Shown one piece after another: positions 16,150-62,760 of a stretch of 64,000 bases of DNA. This stretch comes from Squalus acanthias (Eukaryota). Both the position numbers and the translations under genes were made by a program. How positions within the stretch are numbered: position 1 is the first letter of the stretch; every line of letters starts with the position of its first letter. The DNA lies in contig CM059435.1 of assembly GCA_030390025.1 (NCBI GenBank), forward strand, positions 98,456,001-98,520,000, read 5' to 3'. A model generated the notes under the pieces. It did not search any database, was not told where the DNA came from, and saw only the letters and a list, made by a program, of their open reading frames with translations.

Positions 16150-17870
16150 CAGAGTTTCAGTTTGCTATGATCAGATCAGAGTGCACACTGTACAGACCTA
16201 AGTTCAGAAAGCTAAGGTGCAGGTTGGCAGTCAAGGCTTAGGAAAGCCCTAATGCACGGATACTGCTGCAGTTTAATCTGATAAAACCGTACAGCCTAGC
16301 AGCACAGAGCACTGGTAAGCTACCCAGCCAGAATGGCTCTACGTGTTGGTGCATTGGCATGCAGGGTTATCTAGAGATAAATGGGAAGAATTCCAAATCC
16401 CAGTGATGGGTCTATCTATCCAGGTTCCATTAATGAACTAGGCTGGATGGTTAATCGTCAACAGTGCCTTCGAGTTCTACAAAGCTGTTTGGTTCAGGTA
16501 TTAGGTTACCAGGTCTGCCTTGGAGGTTTGACCTAGTTCTGAATTTCCATTGCCAGGTCTGTAATTTAGAAGTCATCTTAACCCCAGAGAGACCCAATTT
16601 ACCTTCCCTCCAAAAAGGATTGTCATTAGTTGATTATTAGACAACTCAAGCATAGACAACAGGTACTAGGAGCTCCTCACAAGTGGCATGGTCAACAGTT
16701 CAACTTACCATAAAATGTGACTGCATTGCCACCATTCTCCTGATCACACTATTAACATACCCTATCAAACAATGATTCCAATAGTTGGAGGTGCAGAGCA
16801 TCAGCAGTATCTGTTTGTCTCTCTGCAACAAAATCATGGTAGACACCAAACCCTGGAGGTATGAGTGCATGTTCTTATATCCTGCCTCCAAATAACATCT
16901 TCCAACAGCTTTTATTGCAAGCCTCAGTTTTTCATCAACTATATAATGGGCAACTGCCTTAAGCATGGTGGAAGAACCAATGCAGGACAGCTTGCAACGT
17001 GTCATCCACTTTGATGCTCTTGATGTCCACATCCATTATCAAGTAGCAACCATACTCATCACAATCTACTTAATCTAGATCCTGATGTGAGAGGCTTTGG
17101 CAAGAAATGTGAATGCTGACTCCCTTACAGGGTGGTCAGAGTCAGCTGGTGTATATCAGAGTGCTCCATTACCCTTCAAATCCATCTCCCAGTTTGGTCT
17201 GGGATATTGCACCTATGCCAGAAGAAGCCCTTCCATTGCATGCCAAAATGTTTTGAACCATTAAGGAGAAATTTTATGGACACATGCTTTGGGTAGCACA
17301 AGCTTAACCTACGTTAAGACTGTCACTGAAGAACGAAAAAACAAAATGGCATTCACTAGTTCTCAGCATGTTTCCAAACAACTGCAACCAGGCGGAAGTT
17401 AGAATCCACAAGGATCCCCAGGTAACAGTATGAATGAACAATTAGGGCAGATGTTCTTTGTATCCTCCAGTAAAAACCTTTGAGATTCCCAATTAAACCA
17501 TGCAAAGCCATAATACCTCACTTGGGGGCGCCCATCACCTTATTCCATTGACGAAAGGTCATTGATCTGAAACGTTAACTCTGTTTCTCTCTCCACAGAT
17601 GCTGCCGGACCTGCTGAGTATTTCCAGCATTTTCTGTTTTTATTTCAGATTTCCAGCATCTGCAGTATTTTGCTTTTGTACCTTATTCCACTGGTTAGCC
17701 ATTGGTTCAAGATGGTGAATAGAGCACAACGGAGTCTTCCAACGACATAGTATCATCTGCGAAAGGAGTGCTGCAATTTTTTCAGAAATGTGTGGATCCA
17801 GCTGAACTTTATTTTACCATTTAATACATCATTGACGAAGACAGTGGACAGCTTTGCCTCACTTCTCTTT
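16150..17870 (-). mobile_element. Possible decayed DIRS/Ngaro-type (tyrosine recombinase) retrotransposon
   Basis: Minus-strand frames give, in order, an RT-like FVNDVL, an RNase H-like (R)ELV…SLNV…PKHVS, then SAFTFLAKA, TRSNLQGR and TAA…ALGLS, reminiscent of YR motifs; many stops. Confidence 0.4.
17548..17679 (+). mobile_element. Short Penelope-like repeat with hammerhead-like 5' end and 11-bp TSD
   Basis: Flanked by ACCTTATTCCA (17537-17547 and 17680-17690); begins TTGACGA-A-AGGTC-ATT-GATCT-GAA-ACGT-T. Confidence 0.75.
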
Positions 17871-22711: not shown

Positions 22712-22842
22712 GCCAACAAAAGATGTAAAATACTGCAGATGCGGGAAATGTGGCACAAAAATAGAAAATGCTGGAAACATCTGTCAGCATCTGTGGAAAG
22801 AACAGATATCTTAACGTTTTGGGTCATTATTCTTGAACTGAA
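22712..22842 (-). mobile_element. Decayed copy of the Penelope-like repeat seen at 17548
   Basis: AAAATACTGCAGATGC…AGAAAATGCTGGAAA…CAGCATCTGTGGA…TTAACGTTT is the reverse complement of 17570-17679; the hammerhead core is eroded. Confidence 0.65.
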
Positions 22843-23449: not shown

Positions 23450-24481
23450 GGCCGGAATTTTAATCTGGAGGTGGGTTGGGAGCAGGGGTGGGGGGCTAGA
23501 AAGCGGGCAGGAAACCTGGGAGAACGGGTTTCCCGCAGGCCCTGCCGAATTTAACGGCAGGGACTGATTAATATTTCAGAACTCTGTTTCCCACCCACAG
23601 TCAGCCAGATGGAGAGGCTGGCTGGCTGCGAGCGGGTAGGTGTGTGGCACTAGGCCGCAGAGAGGAGGGCGGGATCGGGGTGAATCGGGGCCGGAGGATG
23701 ATTGGGGATGTGGTCGGGGCTGGAGAAGGATCGGGTGGTGGTGGTGGTGAGGGGCCGGAGAACAAACGAGGCCCGAGGATTGGGGCCGGAGGAGTATTGG
23801 TGGGGGTGCCAGGGGTGGGGGAGGGGGGCGGTGGTCAGGAGCCGTAGGATGATTAGGGCTGTAGGAGAGGAAGCCGGAGGAGCATCAGGGGTGGTCGGGA
23901 GCCAGAGGGCCACCAAGGCCGGAGGAGCATCGGGGGGTGGTTACAGTTGGGGGCCGGAGGAGCATCGGGGCTGGAGGGGTGAGGCCTGGAAGGTGGTTGG
24001 AGGCCTCAGGGTGGGGGGGGTGGAAATTGAAAGCCTCAGTGGTGGGAAGTCGAGGCGAAATTGGTGGCCTCATGGGGGGAGATCGGAGGCCTTGGAGGGG
24101 TGTCCGACTGCGGGGGGGGGGGCGGGGTGCTGGTTGGTGAGGCAGGGATGCTGGATCCAGCAGGTAAGTGGAAAGGCATTTACCTCCTGGATCCAGCAGT
24201 CCTCGCCTTCCTTTAGCTGGCTGGTTCCCGAGGCCCGGGAAACCTGACCAGCCAGAGTTAAATTTGTAATGGTGGATCACCATGACGCACGCCAGCCTCA
24301 TTATAATATTTAAATGGCCAACCTGCCTCCTGGGAGTGGGTTGGCTGCTCGTCCCCCGCCCCCCCCCGTCCCGCCTCCGTTAAAACCAGAAGTGGGCAGA
24401 TTGGGGTCGGGATCCAGTTTTTTTTTAACTCTTTAACCTCCCACCCCAACCCACCAGTTTTTTGGCGTTAAAATTCTCCCC
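23450..24481. mobile_element. GC-rich non-autonomous DNA transposon (Harbinger-like MITE)
   Basis: Termini GGCCGGAATTTTAA…TTAAAATTCTCCCC form imperfect inverted repeats; G-rich low-complexity interior. Confidence 0.65.
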
Positions 24482-32628: not shown

Positions 32629-35600
32629 GTAAGGAACTTTGTTAGTTTACTGTAGACTGGTGGAGTCAAAATTCTATGGTAAATGTATTTATGCTAAATG
32701 TTTTAGTCTGTCACTGCTTTGGAACATTCACATGTCCTTATCTGCAGCAGATCGTGCATCCTGGTCTTTGATTCTTCTTCTGAGTTATATTTAGCACAAT
32801 TATATTTTTAATCACTCTTTTAAAAATCAAATCATTACAAAGAATTATAATTAGCAATTTTTTGTTTGCTCCTTTTTGATTAAACTAGTGAATCTCCTGT
32901 GGCATTGTTCATGGTGAGTTAGACGAAACTTTGTTTTATGCTATGTAAAGAGCAGCATATTATCAGGGCCACTAATTTAAGGTGATTAAATAAGTCAAAT
33001 TGCATTTATTGTAGGAGGGTTAGTGATATTTCTGGGCTCAAATTCTATGATTATGTGGATATTTGCAGTGATCTCGATTACTGTTAAAAGTTTAACTATG
33101 TATTTTCATTGCTTACCTTTTTAAAGCACAGGATGCAGAGAAAGGCATTCGAGCTGTTTCGGGATTCAGATGGGCAGGACATAAGTTGTAAGAAACGTGT
33201 GTAGCAGTACTGGAAAGTTGAGGAGGCCTTGTAGTGTTTGAAGGATGGCCCAGGGGTTTGCGAGCAGGAGTCATGGGGTCTAAAGGAACTGGGAGGAGGT
33301 TGCAGAATGTGGCAGGGGTGCCATGGTGGTTGAGATCACTGGGAAGGGGAGTACCAGGGTTTGGTAGGTGTGGAGGAGAGGTGACCAGATATTGCCAGTC
33401 AGAAGCTGTGAGAGGAGTTAAAGAGCTGTCCCAGGGTGTAGGAACACTGGGAGGGGATGGTGAGTGTAGCTATATTGGGTGGTTGGACTTGGGCTGTGGT
33501 AGTGCTGGTATGTTGGCAGGGTGTTGCTGAGTGTGGGCATGTAATAGGTGTTATTAAGCATTTATTTTAAGTAGTACAGGTTTCCCCAGGCCCTTTCAAC
33601 AAATCACCCCCACCCTGCACATCACAACCTGCCCTTGAGGCACCACCTTACAGTGACAAAAGGTACATTTCTTTCCAGCTTAAAGGTCGTCAAGCACTTT
33701 TAAAATCTATTCACTGATTTTTAAGCATTTTAAGAACTTTAAGCCAGAATATAGTTTTTGTCACTGCAAGGAGGTGCCTTGGGACTCAAGGTCAAGTCAC
33801 GGTGCAGGAGAGCCATGAATATGGCTTTTGTCACTGCAGTGGGTGGGGGGCTGCGGATTGCCTTGAGACTTGGTTGGGTTGGGTCAGGGATGTACAGTCA
33901 CAGATGGAGCTTGGGGGAGACAGCAGCTATGAAAGGGGACAGGCAGCATTGGGCAGGCCTGACTTTAGGAGTTCTTGCACTATCTTATTGATGTGGATGT
34001 GAGGACTTGAAGGTAAGTAAGTAAAGGCACCTTGGAAACCAAGCTTGGAGGACTCAATCAGAGGTAAGTTTAATTATGACAGGAAAAAATGAGAGACATG
34101 CATGACAGAAATGGCATGATGGAAGAAAGTAATTAAGTGTTACTTGACAGAAAGCTATGCAAGATTGTTAAATATTAAAGATGGTGAAGTGAACTGATTG
34201 GGAAGAATTTATGTTAGGAGAGAAAACCATAATTAACTGCGGTTTCAATAATAGCATCAGTTCTACTATGTACACTACTTTACCTTCCACACACTGAGTT
34301 CAGAAACTCATCCACACCAAATAAATCTCTGTTACTTAAATAATTTAAAGAAATATTTTAAAAAACAGAAATGTGATTAAAAAGTTGTTGAAGTTATTAC
34401 ATTTTTGGTAACATTTGATCTTTAAAAGAGATAATGATGGTGCAAATTTCTTATTAGCTATTAAGGAACAGCATAAATAGCATCCCTCATCTCTCAAGTT
34501 ATCTTTCTGTCCTTTACTTTTATTAGATTTTTTGCCTACTTTACTTGGCTTCTCAACTTTCCTTAGTCTCCCACTATACCTCCTGGCTCAGCTGATTCCT
34601 GCTTCTACTCCATGACATGCAAAGTTGTTCATGCTCTCAGACTGAAAATTCAGCATTCCACACATTACAGAACCGTCACCTTGTATTGAGGTGGAACCAG
34701 ATTACATCTGCAGCCGTAAGTATGATTAGAGAGGAACATTTTTGTGCATTCATGGTTAGTGGACAGAAAATCTAACACATTATCTTCCATTGAAAGATAC
34801 CTCTTTAATTGAATGCACATAATATAAATGAGACACAGAGTGGTCTTGATGATTTACCAAAACCTGTATGTCTTGTGCTGATAGTAAATATTGAGCTTCA
34901 TCAGATATCCTATATGCATGTTACATGTCTAAGATCTACAATATAATGTTACACTTGGTGGTTTATGGGTCTTGTGTGCTGCTCTGAAGATTTTGTAGTG
35001 CTGCCACACAATCCCCAATCATACCTTGCTGACTTAGCCATCTGCTCCCAACAGTTACTCATTTTCTTCCTGATCATTTTGTGTTTTTTTCCAGTATGTT
35101 CTTCTTGTGCTTGCATCCATCATAGTTTAGGTTTGTCCCTTTCCCATTTTTGTCCCTCCTTTTCTTCCCAGTTCTCCTGCTCCCTACTGCTCTGATTTTA
35201 TGTGAAATAGCTCCTCCAACATAAATGATGGAATCCATAAACACATGATGAGCTTTTAGCAACATTGGTGCCTGACAGAAAGCAGAACCAATGCTACCAG
35301 CTCATCGAACTAATAGGACAGATCTTAAAAAGGGCAGTGTGGTAGATACTTATGAGAATTTATTACTTTGGCAATGAATTATGAAAAACAATCTACTCGC
35401 ACAAAGCTGCAATGTAATCAAGAAAACCTAATCAAGAAGGTTGAGTTGTTAAACTGAATAGTAACATTTAAGCTTTGAAATTATTTCAGGGTATGAATTA
35501 ACTCCACAGAGCAGTTTTAATTTTTGTATTGGCGACAGTAGCTCTTGTTGTATGTTATTGATGCATGATGCTCACACTAATGATTGTGATGTAATCCTGC

Positions 35601-44665: not shown

Positions 44666-46399
44666 AACAACAATTTGTATTTATATAGCACCTTTAACGT
44701 AGTAAAATGTCCCAAGGCACTGCACAGGAGTATTTTAAGACAAAAAATTTGACACGAGGCCACATAAGGATAAATTAGGGCAGGTGACCAAAAGCTTGGT
44801 CAAAGAGGTAGGTTTTAAGGAGCGTCTTAAAAGGAGGAAAGAGAGGTAGCGAGGCGGAGAGGTTTAGGCAGGGAATTCCAGAGCTTAGGGCCTAGGCAAC
44901 AGAAGGCACGGCCACCAAAGGTTGAGCGATTATAATCAGGGATGTTAAGAGGGCAGAATTGGAGGAGCGCAGATATCTCGGGGGGGTTGTGGGGCTGAAG
45001 GAGATTACAGAGATAGGAAGGGGCGAGGCCATGGAGGAATTTGAAAACAAGAATGAGAATTTTAAAAACGAGGCGTTGCTTAACCGGGAGCCAATGTAGG
45101 TCAGCAAACACAGGGGAGATGGGTGAACGAGGCTTGGTGCGAGTTAGGACACGGGCAGCCGAGTTTTGGATGGCCTCAAGTTTACGTAGGGTGGAATGTG
45201 GGAGGCCAGCCAGGAGTGCGTTGGAATAGTCAAGTCCAGAGGTAACAAAGGCATGGATGAGGGTTTCAGCAGCGGATGAGGTGAGGCAAGAGCGGAGACG
45301 GGTGATGTTACGGAGGTGGAAGTAGGCGGTCTTTGTTATGTTGCGGATATGTGGTCGGAAGCTCATTTCAGCGTCAAATATGACACCAAGGTTGCGAACA
45401 GTGTGGTTCAGCCTCAGACAGATGTTAGGGAGAGGGATGGAGTCAGTGGCTCGGGAACTAAGTTTGTGGCGGGGACCGAAAACAATGGCTTCGGTCTTCC
45501 CGATATTTAACTGGAGAAAATTTTTGCTCATCCAGAACTATATGTCGGACAAGCAGTCTGACAATTTAGACACCGTGGAGGGGTCGAGAGAAGAGGTAGT
45601 GAGGTAGAGCTGGGTGTCGTCAGCATACATGTGGAAACTGACTCTGTGTTTTCGGATGATGTCGCCAAGGGGCAACATGTAGATGAGAAATAGGAAGGGG
45701 CCAAGGATAGATCCTGGGGGACACCAGAGGTAACGATGTGGGAGCAGAAGAGAAGCCGTTGCAGGTGATTCTCTGGTTACGATTAGATAGATAAGAATGG
45801 AACCAGGCGAGTGCAGTCCCACCCAGCTGGACGACGGTGGAGAGGCTTTGGAGAAGGATGGAGTGGTCAACCGTGTCAAAGGCTGCAGACAAGTCAAGAA
45901 GAACGAGGAGGGATAGTTTACCTTTGTCACAGTCAGAAAGGATGTCATTTGTGACTTTGATGAGAGCCGTTTCGGTACTGTGGCAAGGGCGGAAACCTGA
46001 TTGGAGGGATTCAAACATGGAATTGCGGGAAAGATGGGCACAGATTTGGGGGGCGACAACACGTTCAAGGACTTGAGAGGAAAGGGAGGTTGGAGATGGG
46101 GCAGTAGTTTGCAAGGACAGAGATCAAGGGTTGTTTTTTTGAGAGGGGTGATGACAGCAGATTTGAGGGAGAGGGGGACAGTACCTGAGGAGAGAGAACC
46201 GTTAACAATATCAGCTAACATGGGAGCCAGAAAAGGAAGTTGGGTGGTCAGCAGTTTGGTGGGAATAGTGTTGAGGGAGCAGGAGGTGGGTCTCATGGAC
46301 AAGATGAGCGCAGAGAGGTCATGAGGGGAGATCGGAGAGAAACTGGAGAAAGATGTGAGTTCAGGGCTAGGGCAGGGGGGAACCTTAGAGGAAGTTTGG
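44666..46399 (-). mobile_element. L2-clade LINE, 5'-truncated, RT region plus 3' UTR
   Basis: QSGFRPCHSTETAL, LLDLSAAFDTVDH, HMYADDTQLY, FLQLNIGKTE, LHWLPVKQR; frameshifts. Confidence 0.95.
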
Positions 46400-46786
46400 C
46401 CCTCCTCGTCCTTCTTGACTTGTCTGCAGCCTTTGACACGGTTGACCATTCCATCCTTCTCCAACACCTCTCTCATAACTCTCAAATGATAATCCATCAC
46501 TTAGGAGAGCACAAGTGGTAAATCAAAAAATGTATTATCAAATGGTATAGGGGCACATAATTGTCAAATAACAGGCATGACTGAGTTATGCTGTTTATTG
46601 TAAAGGGCAGTTTAATTTTCTAACCAGCACTGTCCATTTGATACTATGTGCATTTTTCTTTTGCTTAGACATTCTTTGGGTTGTAGTATTTCTGAAAATC
46701 AGTGCTGGAACAGAGATGGCATGTACAATTCAAGCACTGATTATAAAACTCAGCATTTTAACTATTTTACTTTTTTTTTTATATAG

Positions 46787-47075: not shown

Positions 47076-47209
47076 GTAAGTACAATTGTGCTCTGTAAAA
47101 GTCAACATATGGTTATCTTTACTTAAGAAGCTTTTTTTTGTAAATAATAGAACACTCTACTATAATATTCACTTCAGCAATAAATTGGTTAATTCTGAAA
47201 CCTTTTCAG

Positions 47210-47319
47210 GATAGCACAGCTCCACTTTCTTGGAATACAAGATGCAGTATCGCTCAGGGTACAGCCAATGGCTTAAAATACTTGCATGAAAATAATCATA
47301 TCCATCGTGATGTTAAAAG
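47210..47319 (+). CDS. IRAK4: IRAK4 coding exon 7 (HRD catalytic loop)
   Basis: [37 protein letters not shown]; 110 nt. Confidence 0.96.
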
Positions 47320-48285
47320 GTAAAGAACACCTTGAATGTTTCTATTGTTTCCTTGCACTTTATATTTTGTATTCAGGATACTTACTTGTCATTTATATAA
47401 TGGTGTCTAAAAAAAAAACTACTAGTCAAACTGCTGAAGAAACTATTGGTTATTAGAACCTTCCCACCACAACAGACTCTTTCACTGATCTGGTTGAAGC
47501 TCCATTAAAAGTTGAGAAAAAAATCTGTTTTAACTAATATTCAATTATTAACAAATTTCCACCATTTGCAATTACTTTAGTCCTATTATAACACTACAGA
47601 GGTAGAGGTTGGTTAACCACACATAGAAAGTGGTTAGACATGTATAGGAATTTTAAGCAAAAAGATTGAGTAAAACAGCTATAACCTATTAAGAGATAAA
47701 GTTGGAAAAGGATGTTAGATCCAAATAAGTGAACCCCAACAGGGGTGATATACTAGATAGAGCATTAGAATAAAAACTAAAGAATCTAGGTTTAAATCAG
47801 TCTTTACTGACCTTCATACTCAGACTTCTTTCCAGATGATGAGTCTTGCCCGTCTTAATCGGTTATCTATGGTAGGGAAGGAAGTGTGGCTGGAAGTATT
47901 TTTTCCTATACCACTTGAGAATGTCTGTTGGCATCTGTGGAGGTGTCCTCCTCCATAAGGAGGATAGTGTGGATGCAAGAAGGGAAAAAAAGTTCAAGAA
48001 AATGAATGGTAAGAAATATTTTGCTGGTATCCTCAGGGTGTAATAAAGCTTTCTGTGGCTGTTCCCCTCCCCCCTCCCCCCCCACTTTATGCTATGTGTC
48101 ATTCCCTAGTCAAGAGCAGGAAAGCAACTTTCTCTCAGGTATACCGCTGTAGTACTCTAACAGATGCTGCGAGGTGCAGGAGAGGAAAGTGGCATAGCTC
48201 TACTGTTAATGTTTCCCTCACCGTGGAGAAGTCCTTAACATACACTGTGACTTCTGAGTTGAGCTTGTTACTCAGTGCTGTATTC

Positions 48286-49425
48286 GATCTTCCTGGCTGC
48301 AATGCTCCATCTCACCCTCAGTAAGCTCCCCGCTGGAGTAGAGCTAATCTACAGAACAAACGGGAAACCGTTCAACCTCAGTCGCCTCCAGTCCAGATCC
48401 AAGGTCGTCCCATCCTCTGTCATCGAATTACAGTATGCAGATGACACTTGCGTCTGCACACACTCTGAGGCCGAACTCCAAACCATCGTCAATACCTTCA
48501 CCGAAGCGTACGAGAGCATGGGCCTTACACTAAACATCCGTAAGACAAAGGTCCTCTACCAGCCTGCCCCCGCCACACAGTACTGCTCCCCGATTATCAA
48601 AATCCATGACGAGGCCTTGGACAACGTGGACCACTTTCCATACCTCAGGAGCCTACTGTCAACAAGGGCAGATGTCGATGACGAAGTCCAACACCGCCTT
48701 CAGTGTGCCAGTGCAGCCTTCGGTCACCTGAGGAAGAGAGTGTTTGAAGACCAGGACCTCAAACCCAGCACCAAACTCATGGTCTACAGAGCAGTAGTGA
48801 TACCCGCCCTCCTGTATGCTTCAGAGACATGGACCATGTACAGCAGGCACCTCAAAGCACTGGAGAGGTACCACCAATGCTGCCGCCGCAAGATCCTGCA
48901 AATCCATTGGCAGGATAGGTGCACCAACGTCAGTGTTCTCGCTCAGGCCAACATCCCCAGCATCGAAGCTTTGACCATGCTCGATCAGCTCCATTGGACG
49001 GGCCACATCGTCCGCATGCCCAATACGAGACTCCCAAAACAAGCGCTCTACTTGGAGCTCTGACATGCCAAGAGAGGCCCAGGAGGGCAGAGGAAACACT
49101 TCAAGGACACCCTCAAAGCCTCCTTGAAAAAGTGCAACATTCCCACTGACACCTGGGAATCCCTGGCCCAAGACCGCAGAAGTGGAGGAGAAGCATCCGG
49201 GAAGGCGCCGAACACCTGGAGTCTCTTCGCCAGGAGCAAGCAGAAGCCAAGCGGAAGGAGCGCACGTCAACCCAAGCACCCCACCCACCCGCCCCTTCAA
49301 CCACCATCTGCCCCACCTGTGACAGAGACTGTAGGTCCCGCATTGGACTCATCAGTCACCTGAGAACTTATTTTTAGTGTGGAAGCAAGTCATCTTCGGT
49401 TCCGAGGGACTGCCTAAGAGAGAAG
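48286..49425 (+). mobile_element. 5'-truncated RTE-clade LINE with 16-bp TSD
   Basis: QYADD, GLTLNIRKTKVLYQPAP, PALLYASETW, C-terminal CPTCDRDCRSRIGLISHLRT zinc finger; TSD ACTCAGTGCTGTATTC at 48270-48285 and 49426-49441. Confidence 0.93.
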
Positions 49426-50326
49426 ACTCAGTGCTGTATTCAGTAATGAAGTACATAGACTGAATTACAGTCACAAGTATATAAACTGTATTGGAAACCT
49501 TTGGGCCGGAACACCAGTGATCCCACTTGCTGCCATAATAATGGCAGAATGAGACTTTCTGTTTGCTGGTGAGGAAACTGCCTGACCCCATTAAATCTCC
49601 TTCAATTTGCATATTCTTAGCAGACACCCACAGCAGTACTGGCACAACTTGGGATAGGGATGCAAAATGCAATGCTGACCAGGCACTTGTGGGTGAAAAC
49701 AGCAGGTCTGACCAAAGACTTCAGTTCAAACTTGAAATTGGCTGATTTCATTAGGGCCAAATTTGCAGTCTAAGTATTTCAGACCATGAAACTGGCCTGG
49801 AACATACTTGTAGATCTCACTTCTGCTGCTGGTGGAACTGTACGTCTGCCTATTACATTGGGAGCACTGGAGGTGGGAATTCTGACAAATGACGTAATTC
49901 CACTGGTCCTGCCTTCTTTAATCACATCAGGCTGTAAAGGGGCGGATGCATCAGCAAGCTGTCCCTGGTCATACAGGAAATTCCATCATAAGTTCCAACA
50001 GGGTGGAGATCTGGCATAGCCTGCTGCCATTTCCATTGCTAAAGGGCTTTGCTCATCCCAGATGTGCCCCTACATCCACTGGCAAACACAGGGATTTTCA
50101 GGGCCTAAGTTTCCATTCTATATTTCTTTCTAAGGCAGAGTATTTAATATAGTACATTGAGCTCAATATGTGAAAGAGTGTATCATTTTATCTATTGTAA
50201 TATTTTTAGTTTTGAGCAACCCTAAGACAACTAGAAAGCATGTGTAATTGTCAAATCATTGAAACCTGTCTTTCTATATAGATTATAGCTCCTCAAAGAT
50301 TGTTCGCTGATCATTTTGTTTTTCAG

Positions 50327-50510
50327 TGCAAATATCTTGTTGGATGGTAAATGTGTTCCTAAGATTTCAGACTTTGGACTTACTCGTGCTTCATCACATT
50401 TAACACAGACAATGTTAACTGAGAAAATCGTAGGCACAACTGCATATATGGCCCCAGAGGCATTGCGTGGGGAAATTACTCCAAAGTCGGATGTTTTTAG
50501 CTTTGGCGTG
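50327..50510 (+). CDS. IRAK4: IRAK4 coding exon 8 (DFG to APE activation segment)
   Basis: [22 protein letters not shown]…[28 protein letters not shown]; 184 nt. Confidence 0.97.
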
Positions 50511-51811
50511 GTAAGTACTTGTGGTTATTTTCCCCGAGACCTGAATGAGTAAAATGTTCTCCAGTTTAGTGTCAGCAAAACTGTTGGATTGTATGTCTCA
50601 GAAAACTGAAGTTATAAATAAACTTCATACTTAGAAGAATGGATTATCCACCCAAAATCAGCACCATATTTTTGATTTTCCTGAGGGCTATTGGTGGGCT
50701 CCTGCTTCTTGGTGGGAATATCGCCAGAAGCCCGAGACAAATTCCTGATGACCCCTCAACCCAGGAAACTGGACTGGAGTCAGAGTCAGGATTGGGGGCA
50801 AAAGACCTGTCCCAAACCTTTCAGGGCAGGATCAGGAAAATCCAACACATTATCTGAATGTTGTTATTAATTTTAAATATTCACCTAATATTTGACCATT
50901 GGCATTTAAGGAGAAATGGAATTTTAGAGCCACGTTCAATATAAGTTTCAGAAAAAAACAACTAAACTGACTGTGACCGTGGTGCATTATCCCTCCTCAT
51001 CCTCTCTGCAGTCTTTAACACAATTGCCCACAACATCCTCTTCCAATGGCTCTCTTCTTTAACCCCTCCACCGCTCCATCTCTTGCTTTTACACCCTCAC
51101 TAAAATCTACCTCTTTGACCAAGTTTTTAGTCTCCTCTCCTCCTTTGGCTTGGCATCCATTTTGTTGCTTGCATCTGTGAAATGCATTGGTATGTTTTTC
51201 TACTTTAAAGACATCTCAAATGCAAGTTATTGTAAAGTCAAGTTGAAAGCCATAAAAATCATAACCTCAAGGTGAACAAATCCAAAGAATAAATATATAT
51301 GGGGAATTAACACCATACAAAAAATTAGTAACTGATAGTTCTGTTAATAAAGTACCCATTGTGAAAGTAGGAAAAAATACTATGATGTTCCATATGATTC
51401 ACATTTTCACAGCATTCACTGATTATTACCATTTGCTAAATGTAGTTTTACAGTAAAAGTTTGCACTATCCACAAATGACAATGCAAGTTTACATTACCC
51501 TTATTAAAATGGCAATTATAAATACCGCCGCATTAAGGAAGGTCCATCAGTGTGAAAAGATTAACACAAAAAGTCTAATTGTAGGGTATCAAATTATAAT
51601 TGCATACCTGTGACAAAACACATTTTTATGTTGGGTCCCTGTAGTCCTAAAGCTAGGGAGATTTGTTCCCATTGGATTTCCCTCTTTCCCCTCTCCATCC
51701 CCCAAAAAGTAATCTGGCAAAGAAGCAATATTTACAAATGTTGTAGTTTTAAAATATTCAGGATAACTTGTGAAAAATATGAATAACTGTGCATTTCTGC
51801 CTCTTGCACAG

Positions 51812-52568: not shown

Positions 52569-53774
52569 TGAGATGAAGCCTGGACCCTCGGTTACTGGTC
52601 ACAACAAACGTGTTATTCAGTGCACAGAACAAACTTTGCACCTTGATACATCTACAGTATTCTTGAGTAAACTTTTGTGTGTGTTTATAGGTCCACATAT
52701 TCTTTGTACCATGTCTTCAGAATAAAAGTTCTCATGCACACCATCTACATCATGATCACCATCATGTGCATCAATGTTCTTCTTCCACTTTGGTTGTCTT
52801 TGTTATTTACAAATAGAAAGGAGAAAGCAAAGGTAGAAAAGAACCAATCATATTATGCGAAACCGTTTTCCCGAATGTCAATTTTCTTCACTAATCACAT
52901 TCCACCAAAAAAAAGTTGTACCCAATCACAACCAGCAAAAAAAATCTTGGGGATACAGCATGCAACACCCTCTTCAAGAGGAAACCTTTCGATAATATTG
53001 TTGCTTTAAGTGCTGTGAATTGAGATGAGTGAATGTGATTATCTGAACAAATATGTGACTCCATTTATGACATGCTGATGTCAAGACTTCTGGGGTTCCA
53101 TAAACGTCAGACTTGATTTCGGGAGCCAGCCCCACACCATGTTCTGTGCTCCGCATCTGGATTTAATTTTCTTTCAATCCAGAATCACCAGCCCCAGTAC
53201 CCACACATCCGAAGTTCAACCCAGCATGCGCCCTCATCCTAAACCTTGTGCTGGCCTCCATCTGGAGCTGCCACACCTAGTTTCACCAGATACAGACTAA
53301 CCTCACCTTCACCCTGCAAAGCTAACAATTAACTGCATTTCCAAAACCAGTTCAGAATCTATTCATGTGTCAGCATAAAGCTAGGAATGTAATTTAAATT
53401 ACAGACTCAAACTGGCTTCATTACCATATTCATAACTGCAAATGAGAAAAATGGTGAACTAGGGCCTATCCCAACCAGCAGCACTGTTTAATATATTTGA
53501 ACTTTTATATGGAAACCATTTTAGTCTTTATTCCATTTAATTTTAAATAGTTAAAAATGATGCACAGGGTGTTTTTCTAGTTTATTTTGCTAAACTAACT
53601 TATATACTGAGTGTATATACATGGCATATATACAAATATATCTTCTAAGTCCCTATTGAAATTCAATCTTGTGATTCAAACAAGAATGATTGACAGATTG
53701 TTAGGCAAGGGTATCATGGGATATGGAGCAAAGGCAGGTAAATGGAGTTGAGATATTGGTCTAATAGAATGATG

Positions 53775-53902
53775 ATGTGGAGATGCCGGTGTTGGACTGG
53801 GGTGGACAAATGTGAGAAGTCGCACAACACCAGGTTATAGTCCAACAGTTTTATTTGAAATCACAAGCTTTCGGAGCGCTGCTCCTTCGTCAGGTGAAGT
53901 CA
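53775..53902 (-). mobile_element. Short Penelope-like insert with 13-bp TSD
   Basis: Flanked by TAATAGAATGATG (53762-53774 and 53903-53915); carries a hammerhead motif near its 5' end. Confidence 0.8.
53861..53897 (-). ncRNA. Minimal type I hammerhead ribozyme motif
   Basis: UCAC-CUGACGA-A-GGAGC-AGC-GCUCC-GAA-AGCU-U-GUGA: conserved core, 5-bp stem II, palindromic AGCU in place of stem III, 4-bp stem I. Confidence 0.7.
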
Positions 53903-55431
53903 TAATAGAATGATGGAACGGGCTCGAGGGGCCGAACGGCCTACTCCTGTTCCTACGTTAATAAAATGTCTCTGTCAGCGCTTCCTTAAAATTTGATAAA
54001 GATATCCTGCAGCATTATAGGTAGACTAACTAGACCCCACTCAAAGGTATTAGTCAATAAGCTTCTGCCAATTCAGGTGCACAGTGGTGCTGTTACTCCT
54101 GTTCCTCCACCTCATGTCTGTGCAGGCCTCCTTGTACTGATGCTGGTGATCCTTTTCTTCAGTCTTGTACTTGCACTAATGCACCTTTTGGCCTAATATC
54201 TTTACTGCTTTTCAGCCTCCAGTTTAAGCATTTCTAACTAGTGCGCAGAAGCTTTATCCTCTGCTGTCAGGTGAGCCAATTCCATTTCTCTGTTTACATC
54301 TTTGAGACCAAGTATTAATTGTCACTACTTTTTGTTCCTAATGAATTACTTTAATTTAAACTTTACACATCCTGTTTGGTCTGCATGCAACATGTGTACC
54401 ACTTTAGTTACAATTTTGCAATGAATAGTTCAGTTTTGTGTTCACAGCAAAAATGCAGTTTTCACAAGTATATCCACATCTCTTATGAACTGAAGCTTTC
54501 ACCCTTGTGCATGACGTGAATGAGGCACTAACAATAGCCCTGTTATTGCATTATTTTGCACTGGAGACTATGTGGGCTCTTCTGTCCATTTCAAAGAGAG
54601 CAAATATCACAAACAGAACATATTACTTGGGCTAAAACCAAGTCAAATTTGTTTACAAACAAGATAATTACACAGAGGCAGAAGGAACACAGCAAGTTAG
54701 TAGTAAAATACTAAAACGGTTCCAAAAATCCTTGTGCTGCTCAATACAAATTTGTTGTTTCCATACTGTGATTAATACATCACTGAACTACCAAGCAGTG
54801 AAAACAAAATTGAGAGTCAGTGATCTTTACACATGATAAACCTATCCATTACACGAACTGATTTTATTTAATGCTCCTGTAAGACTGCCCACAAGACAAG
54901 TACACTGCGAGCACTGCAAAAATGTTAAAACTTGAGAATTTAAACAGTACTTTGGTAGCTTGCCTTCAGATTCCTAGTGCTGGAAAAGAACTGACTGTTC
55001 GGTCAGCTCTTTTCTAATATTAGAAATGTTTACAATTAGGCAAAACCCTGCTCTGTACATGCATAAACCCAGAGTTCTCCTGGACCAGAGTGGTGCATGC
55101 AGGCATTATACCTGCAACTGCCCACTTCCCAACTCTCCTGAAGGCACTGACTCTTGCTAGGTAAGGTTGCATAACATTGTTAGCAGTATAGCAGCTTACC
55201 CGAGAGAGAATTTTTTTGTGTGAAAGCCTAGACAGTGATTTAATATGTACATAGAAATTTGTTAGTGATTCGTTATGAGCTAGCTGTAATTTAGAATTTT
55301 CATTTTCCTCTAAAAAGGTTGCAGCACCAAGAGAGAAATGTGATTTTGACCAGTGAAATATTTATTTAATTTACATCATATTGGATATGAGACCGCACAT
55401 GTGCCAGATTGTTTGCAGTGCAAAGAGCAAC

Positions 55432-59770: not shown

Positions 59771-59938
59771 TTAATCAGTTTTGTCAGGTTCTGCTGGCCC
59801 CCGTATTAATCGTCTTATTCCCCTCTTGCCTGCAGGACCCTTCGGTTTGGCAAAGATCTGCCTGTGTGCATGCTGCTTTGGATGAACCTCCTCGTACAAG
59901 AAATCAGCGGTCAGCTCATTGCCATCATCAATTTCAAT
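59771..59938 (-). CDS. TWF1: Twinfilin-1 terminal exon (C-terminal tail)
   Basis: [48 protein letters not shown]…*; the [11 protein letters not shown] tail and IRAK4 adjacency favour TWF1 over TWF2. Confidence 0.95.
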
Positions 59939-60728
59939 CTGTAGAAAAGTGAACCAGTTTTTTTTTTTAAATACATAAAAACAAATGACAGATTCAAACA
60001 AATTTGAGGACAAGACGCATTTTCACCAAAGGAATGATATCAAGACTGCAACTCTATTTGCCGTAAGTGTAAAAGAGAGAAATATATAGGATATCAAAAC
60101 AGTTCAATTATTCAAATTTTACTACTACCACCAAGTAATAGACATCTTCACATATTTGCACAAATAGGACCCACAATGGGCTAGTATTAACTGGTCTTAC
60201 ACTCAGTAAAACTGCTAGTTTGTTTAGTGTTGGCATGCTCAGGAGGCGCTGGCTGTAAGGTTATTTAATAAAGTCATTAAATCTTGCACCAAGATGACCT
60301 TCAATTGGGCATATTGTTGAATTTATGAAAGACTGTGGCACCACTTTTCCAGGGTTAAACCTAAGCATGCAACAGAGATAAAAATGCTTGGAAATAAATC
60401 AGTAGCCTTTTCATGGTTAAGGCTTAGTGTCATGCTTTTGTGAGGAGTTTACGTTTTAGCAGCAAATAGCACAATGTCAAACATTATGAACAATGAATTT
60501 AGACAGCTTGCCATGCAGCTAAATGGACTGACTAACGGGAAAATGGACACCATCAATTTGCAGTATTATTAGGAGAAAATAAAATGGAGCTAGCAGCAAT
60601 ACTTGATACAGAGTGAGTTGGAAGAAGAATTGGGAGATTCTGTATTGTTTGTTTCTTGGTTGTCAAAGAATAACATGGAGATGAATAACTGGGACAAATA
60701 AGCTAAAGGAGTTTGAGAGAATATTTAC

Positions 60729-60850
60729 CTTTTTAGTTATTTCCAGAGCTATTTGTTTTTCCACCATATCAATCAAGGGACTCTTACAACTGGAGTATAA
60801 CATTCGCTCTCGAATACTACATGTGTAGCCAGGCATCGAGTATATAAACA
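60729..60850 (-). CDS. TWF1: Twinfilin-1 penultimate exon
   Basis: [41 protein letters not shown]; 122 nt. Confidence 0.96.
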
Positions 60851-61436
60851 CTGGAAGACAGATAAATATTTATGTTCAAAGAAACAATTTTTAACAATCA
60901 TCTTACTTAGAAAGGGATTAAAAAAGTAAACATTTTATATTCCCCTTCGCAAGAGAAAGCAACTAATTTTGTCTGCCAAAATTGGTTAATATTTGTTCAC
61001 AGAACAAGGACATCAATGCTTCCTGGTGTAATCCTCATCAGTAGTGGTAAAGGACTACTGGCCACCGCTTATATGGATATGGTGCTGCCGTTGATGAAAC
61101 ATGATAGAACTAGCCCTGACTCACACCTTGCGCTTCCTGTTGACTGATGATACAGTAATATTGACAGGAGCTCAGGAGAGGTCTGCACAAAAGCCAATAT
61201 GCTCTTCCTGCTAAAGGAAGTTCCAGTAAAGAAATCCAGGAAAGGGGGATTTTGGAGAGAAAGTTCATTTACAAAAAAAAAATCATCCTTAAAAAGTAAA
61301 TTTCTGTTGTTTATGTACTGCAGAAGGTTTTTATTATCTCATGGATTCAACAACAGGCATCTCAAGTTCAAACACACAATCACATGGCAAGCTTACAAGA
61401 TTGCAATGGAACCAATATTATGAAAGAAATCTATAC

Positions 61437-61587
61437 CTATAGACTCCAAGTAGTCTCCTTCATAAGAGTGCTTATAGAGGAAGAAATGATAACGAGCAGA
61501 ATCCTTTGGTACACGCTTTGGTAAGTCTCCTATCTCCGTATGGGTTGTATCTGCCAACTTTATAGTTTCTTGATTAAAGTCTATTTT
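61437..61587 (-). CDS. TWF1: Twinfilin-1 exon (second ADF-H domain)
   Basis: [50 protein letters not shown]; 151 nt. Not in the supplied ORF track. Confidence 0.95.
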
Positions 61588-61664
61588 CTGCCAACAGAAA
61601 TAGATGATACATTGAATTACTGATGATAAAAATAAAAGTGAAATGCACTCTGTGGTGAGAGAGG

Positions 61665-62760
61665 ATGGTCTTGTCTAACAAATTTACTGGAGTTCTTCGA
61701 GGAAATGACAGATCTTGTTGACAATATAAATTCTATGGATGTGATACATATTTGAATTGCAGCAAGGCTTTTGTTACCATGCCACACAAGCAATTAGTTA
61801 ACAAAGTAGGAAGGCATGGAATAGAAGGCATTCTTCAAAGGTGGACTTTAAATTGGCTAAGCCCTATAAAAAGGGTGTTTGCAAATGGAGCTGCATCTAC
61901 ATGGCAAGGGGTGCAACGGAGATCAGTGCTGCATCCACTGCTGTTTTAAGTGCATATCAATAATTTGTACATGAAGACAAGCAAAAGCTGTCTAACTTTG
62001 CAGATGACACCAAATTGAGGAAAGAGAACAGGCAAGCCAAATTCAAAGGGATCTGAAATAGGTTGGAAAAGCAGGCTGAAGTGTGGCAAATGGCATTTGG
62101 TGCAATGTAGCGCGACTAGGGAAGAGAAATAAATAGGAATATAAACAAACTGGCTCTACACTTTAGAACAAAACACAGAAGAGAGATCTGGAGGGTTTTA
62201 GTGTGGAAGCAAGTCATCCTCGGTTCCAAGGGACTGCCTAAGAAGAAGAGACTAATGGATAGCTCACTGAAACCAACAGTGCAGCAGAAGTAAGGAAACT
62301 AACCAGATCTTTGGGATGTATAACCACTGGGAGAGCACACAAATCCCAGGTGATAAATGAGTCCGTACAAGCCACTGGTACACCCGCACCTGGAGTAGTC
62401 TATAATTCTGGTCACTGCAATACAGCAAGGACATCCAGGCATTGGAGGCTGTGCAGAAAAGGGCAAGGAAACTGATGCATAGCTTAAGGTATCTGAGCTA
62501 TGCAAAGAGGTTGAAGAGCCTGGGATTGTTTATGCTGAAGGAAAAATTTCAGGAGAGATATTAAAAATATTTTAAGGGAATAGATAAAGTGAATCTAGAT
62601 AATATTTTTGAGATTGCCACACATTCCAGACATAGAGTGTGGTTATGTGTGGAATGGACTGCTCAAGTTGACAGAAGAGGCAGAAAGTGTAGAAAAACAT
62701 TTAGGGAGTATTGGGTAGATATCTGAAAATGTAGGCAATTGAGAGATTAGTTTTTGGGAC
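61665..62760 (+). mobile_element. Decayed CR1 LINE, with a ~55-bp RTE 3' tail inserted at 62196-62250
   Basis: TGTCTAACAAATTTACTGGAGTTCTTCGAG, TTTGCAGATGACACCAAA; insert TTTTAGTGTGGAAGCAAGTCATCCTCGGTTCC…GCCTAAGAAGAAG matches 49372-49425. Confidence 0.8.

Follow-up and report, generated by a model that had tools for sequence, protein, structure and literature searches.

The window (the whole 64-kb stretch of shark DNA analysed here) carries on its minus strand a 128-bp insert that is almost certainly of Penelope origin. The insert is a copy of the hammerhead-bearing leader of a Penelope-like element, probably made by reverse transcriptase (RT) that initiated at the ATG, inside an RNA left uncleaved, and copied it through to its capped 5' end. 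Penelope-like elements are relatives of telomerase. The parts of this account that are demonstrated are the identity of the leader with that of an intact element, both boundaries, the target-site duplication (TSD), the spacing of a TATA box and an excess of G at the 5' junction. Neither the element nor its ribozyme or inverted layout is of a new kind. The family is young, having thousands of near-identical copies and an intact open reading frame (ORF), and as such it documents, across natural insertions, the points at which copying begins and ends. These points suggest that the main template is capped RNA that has not been cut, and a large share of the 'solo' hammerheads scattered through shark genomes would be explained as by-products and not as a regulatory class.

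The insert, its hammerhead and its site

The hammerhead motif described in the initial annotation was confirmed on the minus strand at 53897-53861, and its parts are collected in Table 1, in which the insert is numbered from +1 at 53900. The motif shows the features of a minimal type I hammerhead, namely the core, an extra base after A9, G10.1-C11.1, a short stem I and the palindrome. A descriptor for minimal hammerheads matched once in the 64-kb window, at the insert, and in none of 20 shuffled windows, bearing out both the motif and its coordinates. An Rfam scan of the window did not match the hammerhead and gave five chance-level matches elsewhere. In RNAfold, stems I and II make up the minimum free energy structure of the insert hammerhead (-11.6 kcal/mol), with a z score of -1.19, so the fold energy by itself is not significant. 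When dimers were folded, the active dimer (-20.7 kcal/mol) was not the predicted best fold, the best alternative reaching -30.5 kcal/mol and two monomers 2 x -11.6 kcal/mol.

Table 1. Positions of the insert, its parts, the interrupted repeat and the second-family fragments in the window
Feature	Position	Strand	Basis
Stem I, UCAC/GUGA	53897-53894 / 53864-53861 (+4..+7 / +37..+40)	-	sequence
Core CUGACGA	53893-53887 (+8..+14)	-	sequence
Extra A after core	53886	-	sequence
Stem II, GGAGC/GCUCC, 5 bp, 3-nt loop	53885-53873	-	sequence
GAA	53872-53870	-	sequence
Palindromic AGCU	53869-53866	-	sequence
U17, predicted cut directly after	53865 (+36)	-	sequence
Candidate minimal type I hammerhead	53861..53897	-	sequence, fold, descriptor with shuffle control
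Leader of Penelope-like element, from +1 (putative transcription start) to +128 (A of ORF ATG)	53773..53900	-	leader alignment
'Tail' between two putative RT start sites (~+92, ~+128)	53773..53809	-	inverted-arm ends
TSD copy on element 5' side, 13 bp	53903..53915	-	identical to 53762-53774
TSD copy on element 3' side; first 3 bases also fit element end	53762..53774	-	
TG between TSD and element; G where element has C, putative copy of RNA cap	53901..53902	-	
Older abundant repeat tail, interrupted ('CR1-like' in the initial annotation)	53653..53960, bounds approximate	+	empty-site alignment
Leader fragment of second Penelope-like family; lacks C3 (17548 has T) and 5' strand of stem I	17548..17679	+	
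Decayed leader fragment of second family; no hammerhead core	22712..22835	-	75% to 17548 copy over 105 bp

As originally described, a perfect 13-bp duplication (53762-53774 and 53903-53915) encloses the 128 bp; three of its bases (CAT) are shared with the element's own end, so that its true length is 10-13 bp. When the empty site was rebuilt, 38 BLAST matches among the fetched loci spanned the junction, with 74-78% identity in the five of these that were printed. The insert therefore interrupts an abundant repeat, in agreement with the claim that it sits in a repeat tail, the name CR1 being the label given in that claim.

Kinase exons lie on the plus strand at 47144-50549 and cofilin/ADF exons on the minus strand at 60666-61674, in genes that we take to be IRAK4 and TWF1, respectively. 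The last TWF1-like coding exon ends at 59774 and the insert lies about 5.9 kb beyond it; the last exon of the kinase gene was looked for in the window and was not found, which leaves the position between the two 3' ends given in the initial annotation tentative. Judged by its sequence, the window copy lacks a promoter and is likely to be a dead end, and the hammerhead it carries along is predicted to act weakly unless a partner or the element's protein assists. There is no sign of a host role for this copy.

The parent element and a second family

A genome search with the insert returned near-identical copies, several of which share further sequence upstream and continue there into a long ORF, and in partial tandems the same 128 bp sits immediately 5' of the ATG. 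The insert is identical to the 5' leader of the intact copy L212 at 125 of 128 bases, which substantiates the proposal of a Penelope-type minimal type I hammerhead, and it is 99% identical to the 3' end of L031. L212 comprises an upstream pseudo-LTR, the leader, the ATG at +128, an 891-aa ORF, a 3' UTR, a second leader, an inverted arm and a duplication. Partial tandems that form pseudo-LTRs were seen in L164, L165, L172, L173, L174 and L176 among 19 loci examined, and also in L212-L216.

The single 891-aa ORF of L212 is open and matches RVT_1 (E 1.1e-8, above the cut-off). GIY-YIG motifs are readable in its translation (VVY..C...C..WYIG, R, H, H, E, N; CCHH); the protein had no Pfam GIY-YIG match or score, and nothing significant in a PDB sequence search. 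A C-terminal GIY-YIG domain with CCHH and R, H, E and N is the criterion given for EN+ Penelope elements in PMC8557442, and a CX2-5CxxC linker before the endonuclease is that for Neptune/Nematis (PMC8557442). The L212 linker reads C-x4-C-x2-C (CX4CxxC), and by the linker criteria of PMC8557442 the parent is, as read from its translation, a Neptune/Nematis-type Penelope-like element. Twelve proteins close to that of L212 were matched at 54-92% identity, ten of them bearing shark names from several sharks. An exact N-terminal ORF pattern matched its source only. In contigs from four runs guessed to be RNA, the summed depth of the leader is about a thousandfold that of the ORF, contig depth being no measure of expression, and in the same four runs loose contig ends cluster at the ATG in three organisms.

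The initial annotation had pointed to an unrelated ribozyme family at 17548 and 22712. Neither window copy passes the hammerhead descriptor, both being incomplete, and the sequence around longer copies indicates that this family is instead the front end of a second Penelope-like element. The sequence upstream of the long copies matches the L212 protein in its RT and endonuclease regions (31% over 360 aa for L245, E 5e-40). This family is represented by 11,476 exact copies of a 35-mer. The two families still pair in stem I (UCAC/GUGA versus AGUU/AACU), in stem II (GGAGC/GCUCC versus AGGUC/GACCU) and in the palindrome (AAGCUU versus AACGUU). Covariation, which had been put forward as a check, is thus present in the stems and the palindrome between the two families, and the hammerhead fold is, on these pairings, conserved, with little within-family variation to compare. 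The 3' UTR of the first family also contains a decayed copy of the second-family leader (78% over 86 bp).

Boundaries of the copies and the putative capped start

The 28-base tail has 8,016 exact copies in the genome, and a tail that continues into the ORF start has 1,058. Seven insertions were present in 19 random 10-kb regions (190 kb) of the ten largest contigs, a rough density of one per 27 kb, and six of the seven have an arm starting at -2 to +9. The boundary sample was anchored on the tail to avoid query bias, and consisted of the first 90 of the 8,016 places listed plus one neighbour; removal of three duplicated loci reduced these 91 matches to 88. The first 30 loci from the genome search with the insert were left out of the boundary statistics because the query biases them. 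The tail-anchored sample represents the first 34 Mb of one contig and requires an exact 28-mer, and consequently favours young copies.

Of the 88 forward arms, 9 start beyond -300, 8 at -300 to -101, 8 at -100 to -51 and 4 at -50 to -11. Nearer the edge, 5 start at -10 to -1, 15 at +1 and 20 at +2 to +9, followed by 8 at +10 to +35, 4 at +36 to +38 and 7 at +39 to +100. Exactly 15 of the 49 arms that reach +1 stop there (p 7e-24), compared with per-base stop rates elsewhere of 0.26% downstream (+11 to +100, hammerhead included) and 0.45% upstream. Stops at -5 to +10 make up 39/69 arms, and 50/88 loci have an arm ending in that interval; because 20/88 arms start at +2 to +9, the edge is a cluster and not a single base. 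More than 10 bp upstream of +1 is reached by 29/88, and copy lengths grade continuously into the coding element. Simple non-inverted units starting at the edge, like the window copy, occur at only 8/88 loci, and there are also duplication-flanked units that span +1 to about +90. Duplications of at least 7 bp flank 69/88 copies, against 5% in mismatched pairs, with a mode of 12-13 bp and a variable length. It had been expected that abundant units of about 130 bp with duplications and non-random boundaries would recur, and the 8,016 tail copies and the 15/49 stops at +1 support this. Fixed boundaries had also been taken to mark a SINE and random ones Penelope fragments; the result is fixed boundaries and Penelope fragments together.

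An adjacent inverted second arm is present at 65/88 loci. The SINE-like class of self-standing ribozyme units proposed in the initial annotation is not supported in view of these arms and the graded lengths, the units being pieces of a protein-coding element. In 62/65 cases the inverted arm ends at +86 to +101 (mode +92), leaving a one-sided tail of about 36 bp, which matches what the two internal RT start sites of the anole element would produce if the shark enzyme behaved alike (PMC11167929). The tail-less arm extends further upstream in 19/65 inverted loci and the tail-bearing arm in 24, and the two lie within 5 bp in 22. Simple fold-back of a tail-bearing cDNA as the sole source of inversion is ruled out by the 19/65 longer inverted arms. 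At the polymorphic base +52 the two arms agree in 45/49 cases, so the arms usually share a source, and two different source RNAs per insertion are ruled out as the rule. For head-to-head junctions, self-priming on antisense RNA has been proposed and the matter left open (PMC3846280). All three arm-length groups would fit a model in which both nicks prime on sense RNA and the two cDNA ends are then joined.

A TATATAT sequence lies 30 bp upstream of +1, which is an A in a pyrimidine initiator-like context. In a sister subfamily the TATA box and its spacing are kept and the intervening bases differ (6/6 loci). Arms starting at +1 and preceded by a base other than the C of the element number 3,994, and in the first 100 of these listed, counted by hand, the base at -1 is G in 61, T in 26 and A in 13; the listed rows are not all independent, and one palindrome is counted twice. 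After dropping 17 sister-subfamily or like rows and one point variant, G is found in 61/82 (p 6e-8 against 0.45). In most G rows the junction is an inverted one, at which the G could have come from the other arm, and at such junctions arms ending in G were chosen far oftener than arms ending in A or T. Fifteen loci were fetched for unclear junctions, five inverted and ten non-inverted; the ten +1 copies of the latter kind comprise six with G, one with A and three joined by microhomology to the element's first bases, giving p 0.08 for 6/10 and p 0.007 for 6/7 without the three microhomology junctions. In L229 both arms carry the extra G. A genomic variant with G at -1 was rejected as the source, there being no long copy with G among the first 100 listed.

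An extra, non-genomic 5' G marks capped full-length LINE-1 insertions (PMC11702581), and from the TATA spacing and G excess we infer that +1 is a capped transcription start. The G at -1 in the window copy is a putative copy of the cap, with a point change in this single copy possible. The second family has a TATA-like TTAAAAA about 31 bp before its edge and hammerhead, with 10/29 arms starting at -4 to +5 and an edge spread over -2 to +3; its G excess is weaker (7/11 at +1 and 8/20 at +2, hand count). Against a capped start stand this weaker G in the second family, the small size of the clean non-inverted G set, and the TATA-less internal promoter described for Drosophila Penelope, in which transcription starts well upstream of the hammerhead (PMC2377424).

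Starts at the predicted cleavage site were found in 246 arms, versus 71 at +33 and 107 at +41 (filters similar, not identical), and a similar two-base filter gave about 2,100 arms at +1, extrapolated from 53/100 rows listed. Cleavage-site starts are thus about tenfold rarer than +1 starts and 2.3-3.5x the two neighbouring controls, so some templates may be cut, and the excess may also come from stem I microhomology. On these counts cut templates would be a minor class at most. This agrees with the anole element PAc, which mainly used uncut RNA as its substrate and required protein for cleavage (PMC11167929), and with the low activity of minimal hammerheads described in PMC4209133.

Origin of the units and relation to known systems

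In the mechanism that we favour, a TATA/initiator promoter in the pseudo-LTR would direct Pol II to begin transcribing at +1, with stem I following three bases later. The RT-endonuclease would nick both target strands 10-15 bp apart, with one nick priming at about +128 and the other often at about +92. On reaching the cap, the cDNA would gain a C, read as G at -1, and its end would be joined either to the target, as in the window copy, or to a second cDNA, producing arms placed head to head, with the tail on one side only. In vitro, the anole element has been shown to initiate internally at two sites and to use RNA that is uncleaved (PMC11167929). A more tentative possibility, which we think somewhat doubtful, is that the leader cDNA is an obligatory 'strong-stop' product as in LTR retroelements, primed in the 5' leader beside the ORF start about 128 nt from the cap. 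The cDNA would then have to jump to the leader copy at the RNA 3' end in order to copy the promoter and ORF, and failed jumps would leave leader-only stubs. Twin priming from both nicks would again give head-to-head arms and a one-sided tail, and would require neither an antisense template nor cutting by the ribozyme. Support for an obligatory strong-stop comes from the need of the PAc template for ORF-start sequence (PMC11167929), and from L212, in which the ORF follows the 5' leader only. As an alternative to the jump, long copies may be primed at the 3' leader.

Ordinary 5' truncation, which is general in Penelope-like elements (PMC8557442), could create an edge with no transcription start if RT stalled or recombined where the folded hammerhead begins on its 5' side and joining was helped by the self-complementary bases there. 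The 3-6 bp microhomologies from the stems that are used at many junctions, and the 20/88 arms that start at +2 to +9, are as such a process would leave them. However, the peak lies past the structure and at one base, and the stop rate inside the hammerhead (+11 to +100) is low, at 0.26% per base. Truncation also leaves unexplained both a G foreign to the element and a TATA box at -30 in two subfamilies, and we regard it as unlikely. Still less probable is that the edge is an RNA processing site, a splice acceptor or other cut. The second-family edge does resemble a splice acceptor too, with a pyrimidine run and CAG, and in Drosophila Penelope an intron ends at stem I (PMC4209133); yet there is no AG before +1 in the first family or its sister subfamily, no shared upstream exon in the first 100 junctions listed, and a processed 5' end would have no cap to explain the G.

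The fixed ends, duplications and high copy number would equally suit a SINE-like or retrozyme-like non-autonomous unit, transcribed and copied as 130 bp, as the initial annotation had it; retrozymes derive from Penelope pseudo-LTRs (bioRxiv 10.64898/2026.07.22.740005), and one junction recurs at four unrelated sites (L197, L198, L202, L205). In one of these four recurring junctions the long and short arms swap, though, which fits a repeated joining event. The unit itself has no TATA box, and the A box at +69 and B box at +104, each with one mismatch, are at chance level (45% of shuffles for either box, 5.7% for the pair); transcription from them would begin downstream of the ribozyme. No tRNA-, 5S- or 7SL-like match of the insert appeared in the Rfam scan. 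The ends do not fall at the cleavage site (4/88 arms start at +36 to +38), a short head-to-tail pair occurs at only 1/88 loci (L136), and short units are as near to the coding element as long ones, all of which makes an independent unit very improbable.

The proposed leader copying from a capped RNA can be compared with systems already described. Start-site-bounded or cap-marked Penelope copies and shark Penelope hammerheads were not found in the literature searched, which covered few subscription journals, and the accessible part of PMC6155905 holds nothing on sharks. The family or its boundary may already be present in Figs S2-S4 of PMC4209133, in Fig S2 of PMC11167929 or in the tables of bioRxiv 10.64898/2026.07.22.740005. 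The rebuilding of the pseudo-LTR and inverted end, and template cutting by the hammerhead, are called open questions in PMC2377424, PMC3846280 and PMC11167929.

The minimal hammerheads of animal Penelope elements (PMC4209133) resemble the insert in having a short stem I, one extra base ahead of stem II, G10.1-C11.1 and a palindromic 15-16 region. They are, as here, mostly single dispersed motifs, ascribed to truncated elements, and include opposite-strand pairs (PMC4209133). In the model of PMC4209133 the ribozyme defines the RNA ends, whereas the shark inserts keep a whole, uncut ribozyme; the accessible part of that article includes no shark family and does not analyse single-copy boundaries. 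Short sequences derived from pseudo-LTRs and bearing type I hammerheads, with dispersed monomers, are shared with non-LTR retrozymes, but these are defined by tandem hammerhead units, while the shark copies are single or head-to-head and run from the putative start site to the ATG (bioRxiv 10.64898/2026.07.22.740005). Pen2a_Av of Adineta vaga (PMC3846280) has, like the shark element, a TATATATA box and a TCACT initiator-like motif in the pseudo-LTR, and also an inverted copy, a 31-bp tail, a 9-bp duplication and a pseudo-LTR extending into the ORF start. It is a single copy whose junctions were read as antisense self-priming (PMC3846280), whereas in the shark family 19/65 inverted arms extend further upstream than simple fold-back allows.

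A further parallel in mechanism is PAc, a Poseidon element of Anolis carolinensis (PMC11167929), in which two internal RT starts 30-40 nt apart give a tail, as here. Cutting of both strands at AT-rich sites and uncleaved RNA as the template would be common to the two elements. The PAc hammerhead includes the ATG, and its RT begins 111-118 nt inside the ORF (PMC11167929), whereas in the shark element the ATG at +128 coincides with the main putative start. PAc is a Poseidon element and the shark element has a CX4CxxC linker; the accessible part of PMC11167929 does not deal with the 5' ends of genomic copies. The non-genomic G at the 5' junction, also serving as microhomology, is shared with full-length LINE-1 (PMC11702581). 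As L1 primes at its poly(A) tail, reaching the cap means full length (PMC11702581), whereas with internal priming in the shark element the product that reaches the cap would be a 128-bp non-coding stub.

Target sites, duplicated loci and a sister subfamily

Among the tail-anchored loci (L071-L160), many of the duplications resemble a small, recurring set of sites in the coding or tail parts of CR1-like sequence, and two of these loci, L095 and L096, share identical 12-bp duplications. The recurrence of so few sites, as read from the duplications, hints at a target preference. Insertions and flanks are identical among L129, L130 and L131, and again between L079 and L080, at distances of a few kb. 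These are either local duplications or assembly repeats, and the repeated insertions were left out of the counts.

Six loci (L182, L189, L196, L204, L207 and L210) form a sister subfamily whose leader is near-identical to that of the first family, the Penelope-like element with the 128-bp hammerhead leader, while its 3' UTR and promoter have diverged. The TATA box at -30/-31 is retained, and five of the six terminate at the +90 site.

Element sequence in other contexts and further features of the window

In the first family, as seen in the intact copy L212, the 3' UTR directly past the stop codon (about L212:1400-1570, minus strand) holds a leader of the second-family type with a decayed hammerhead, in which stem II pairing is kept and GAA and A9 are gone. 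It is a leader retained from an ancestor or else an insertion captured long ago. Pieces of the first-family C-terminal region are also contained in predicted shark isoforms (P0003, P0008, P0009, P0010 and P0012) of the host genes septin 5a, XRCC5, PPP1R12A-like, FSTL5 and NOXP20-like, reflecting either exonisation or annotation artefacts.

Other features of the window
Feature	Position	Strand	Observation	Assignment
Long hairpin	33637-33780		Weak Rfam miRNA match, far under gathering score	Probably small inverted-repeat element
Long hairpin	24129-24223		As for 33637-33780	Probably small inverted-repeat element
320-aa open frame	45541-46500	-	RT-like motifs (YADD); within kinase gene	LINE fragment

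Junctions and a possible further start site

One identical inverted-arm junction, in which an arm ending at +20 is followed by TG and then by +1, occurs at four unrelated sites with differing duplications (L197, L198, L202 and L205). In L030 and L064, an ORF-start piece fused to another piece of the element ends at one common base about 120 nt beyond the ATG. This base may mark a third site for starts or jumps. The distance is similar to that in PAc, the Poseidon element of Anolis carolinensis, where the RT start lies 111-118 nt into the ORF.
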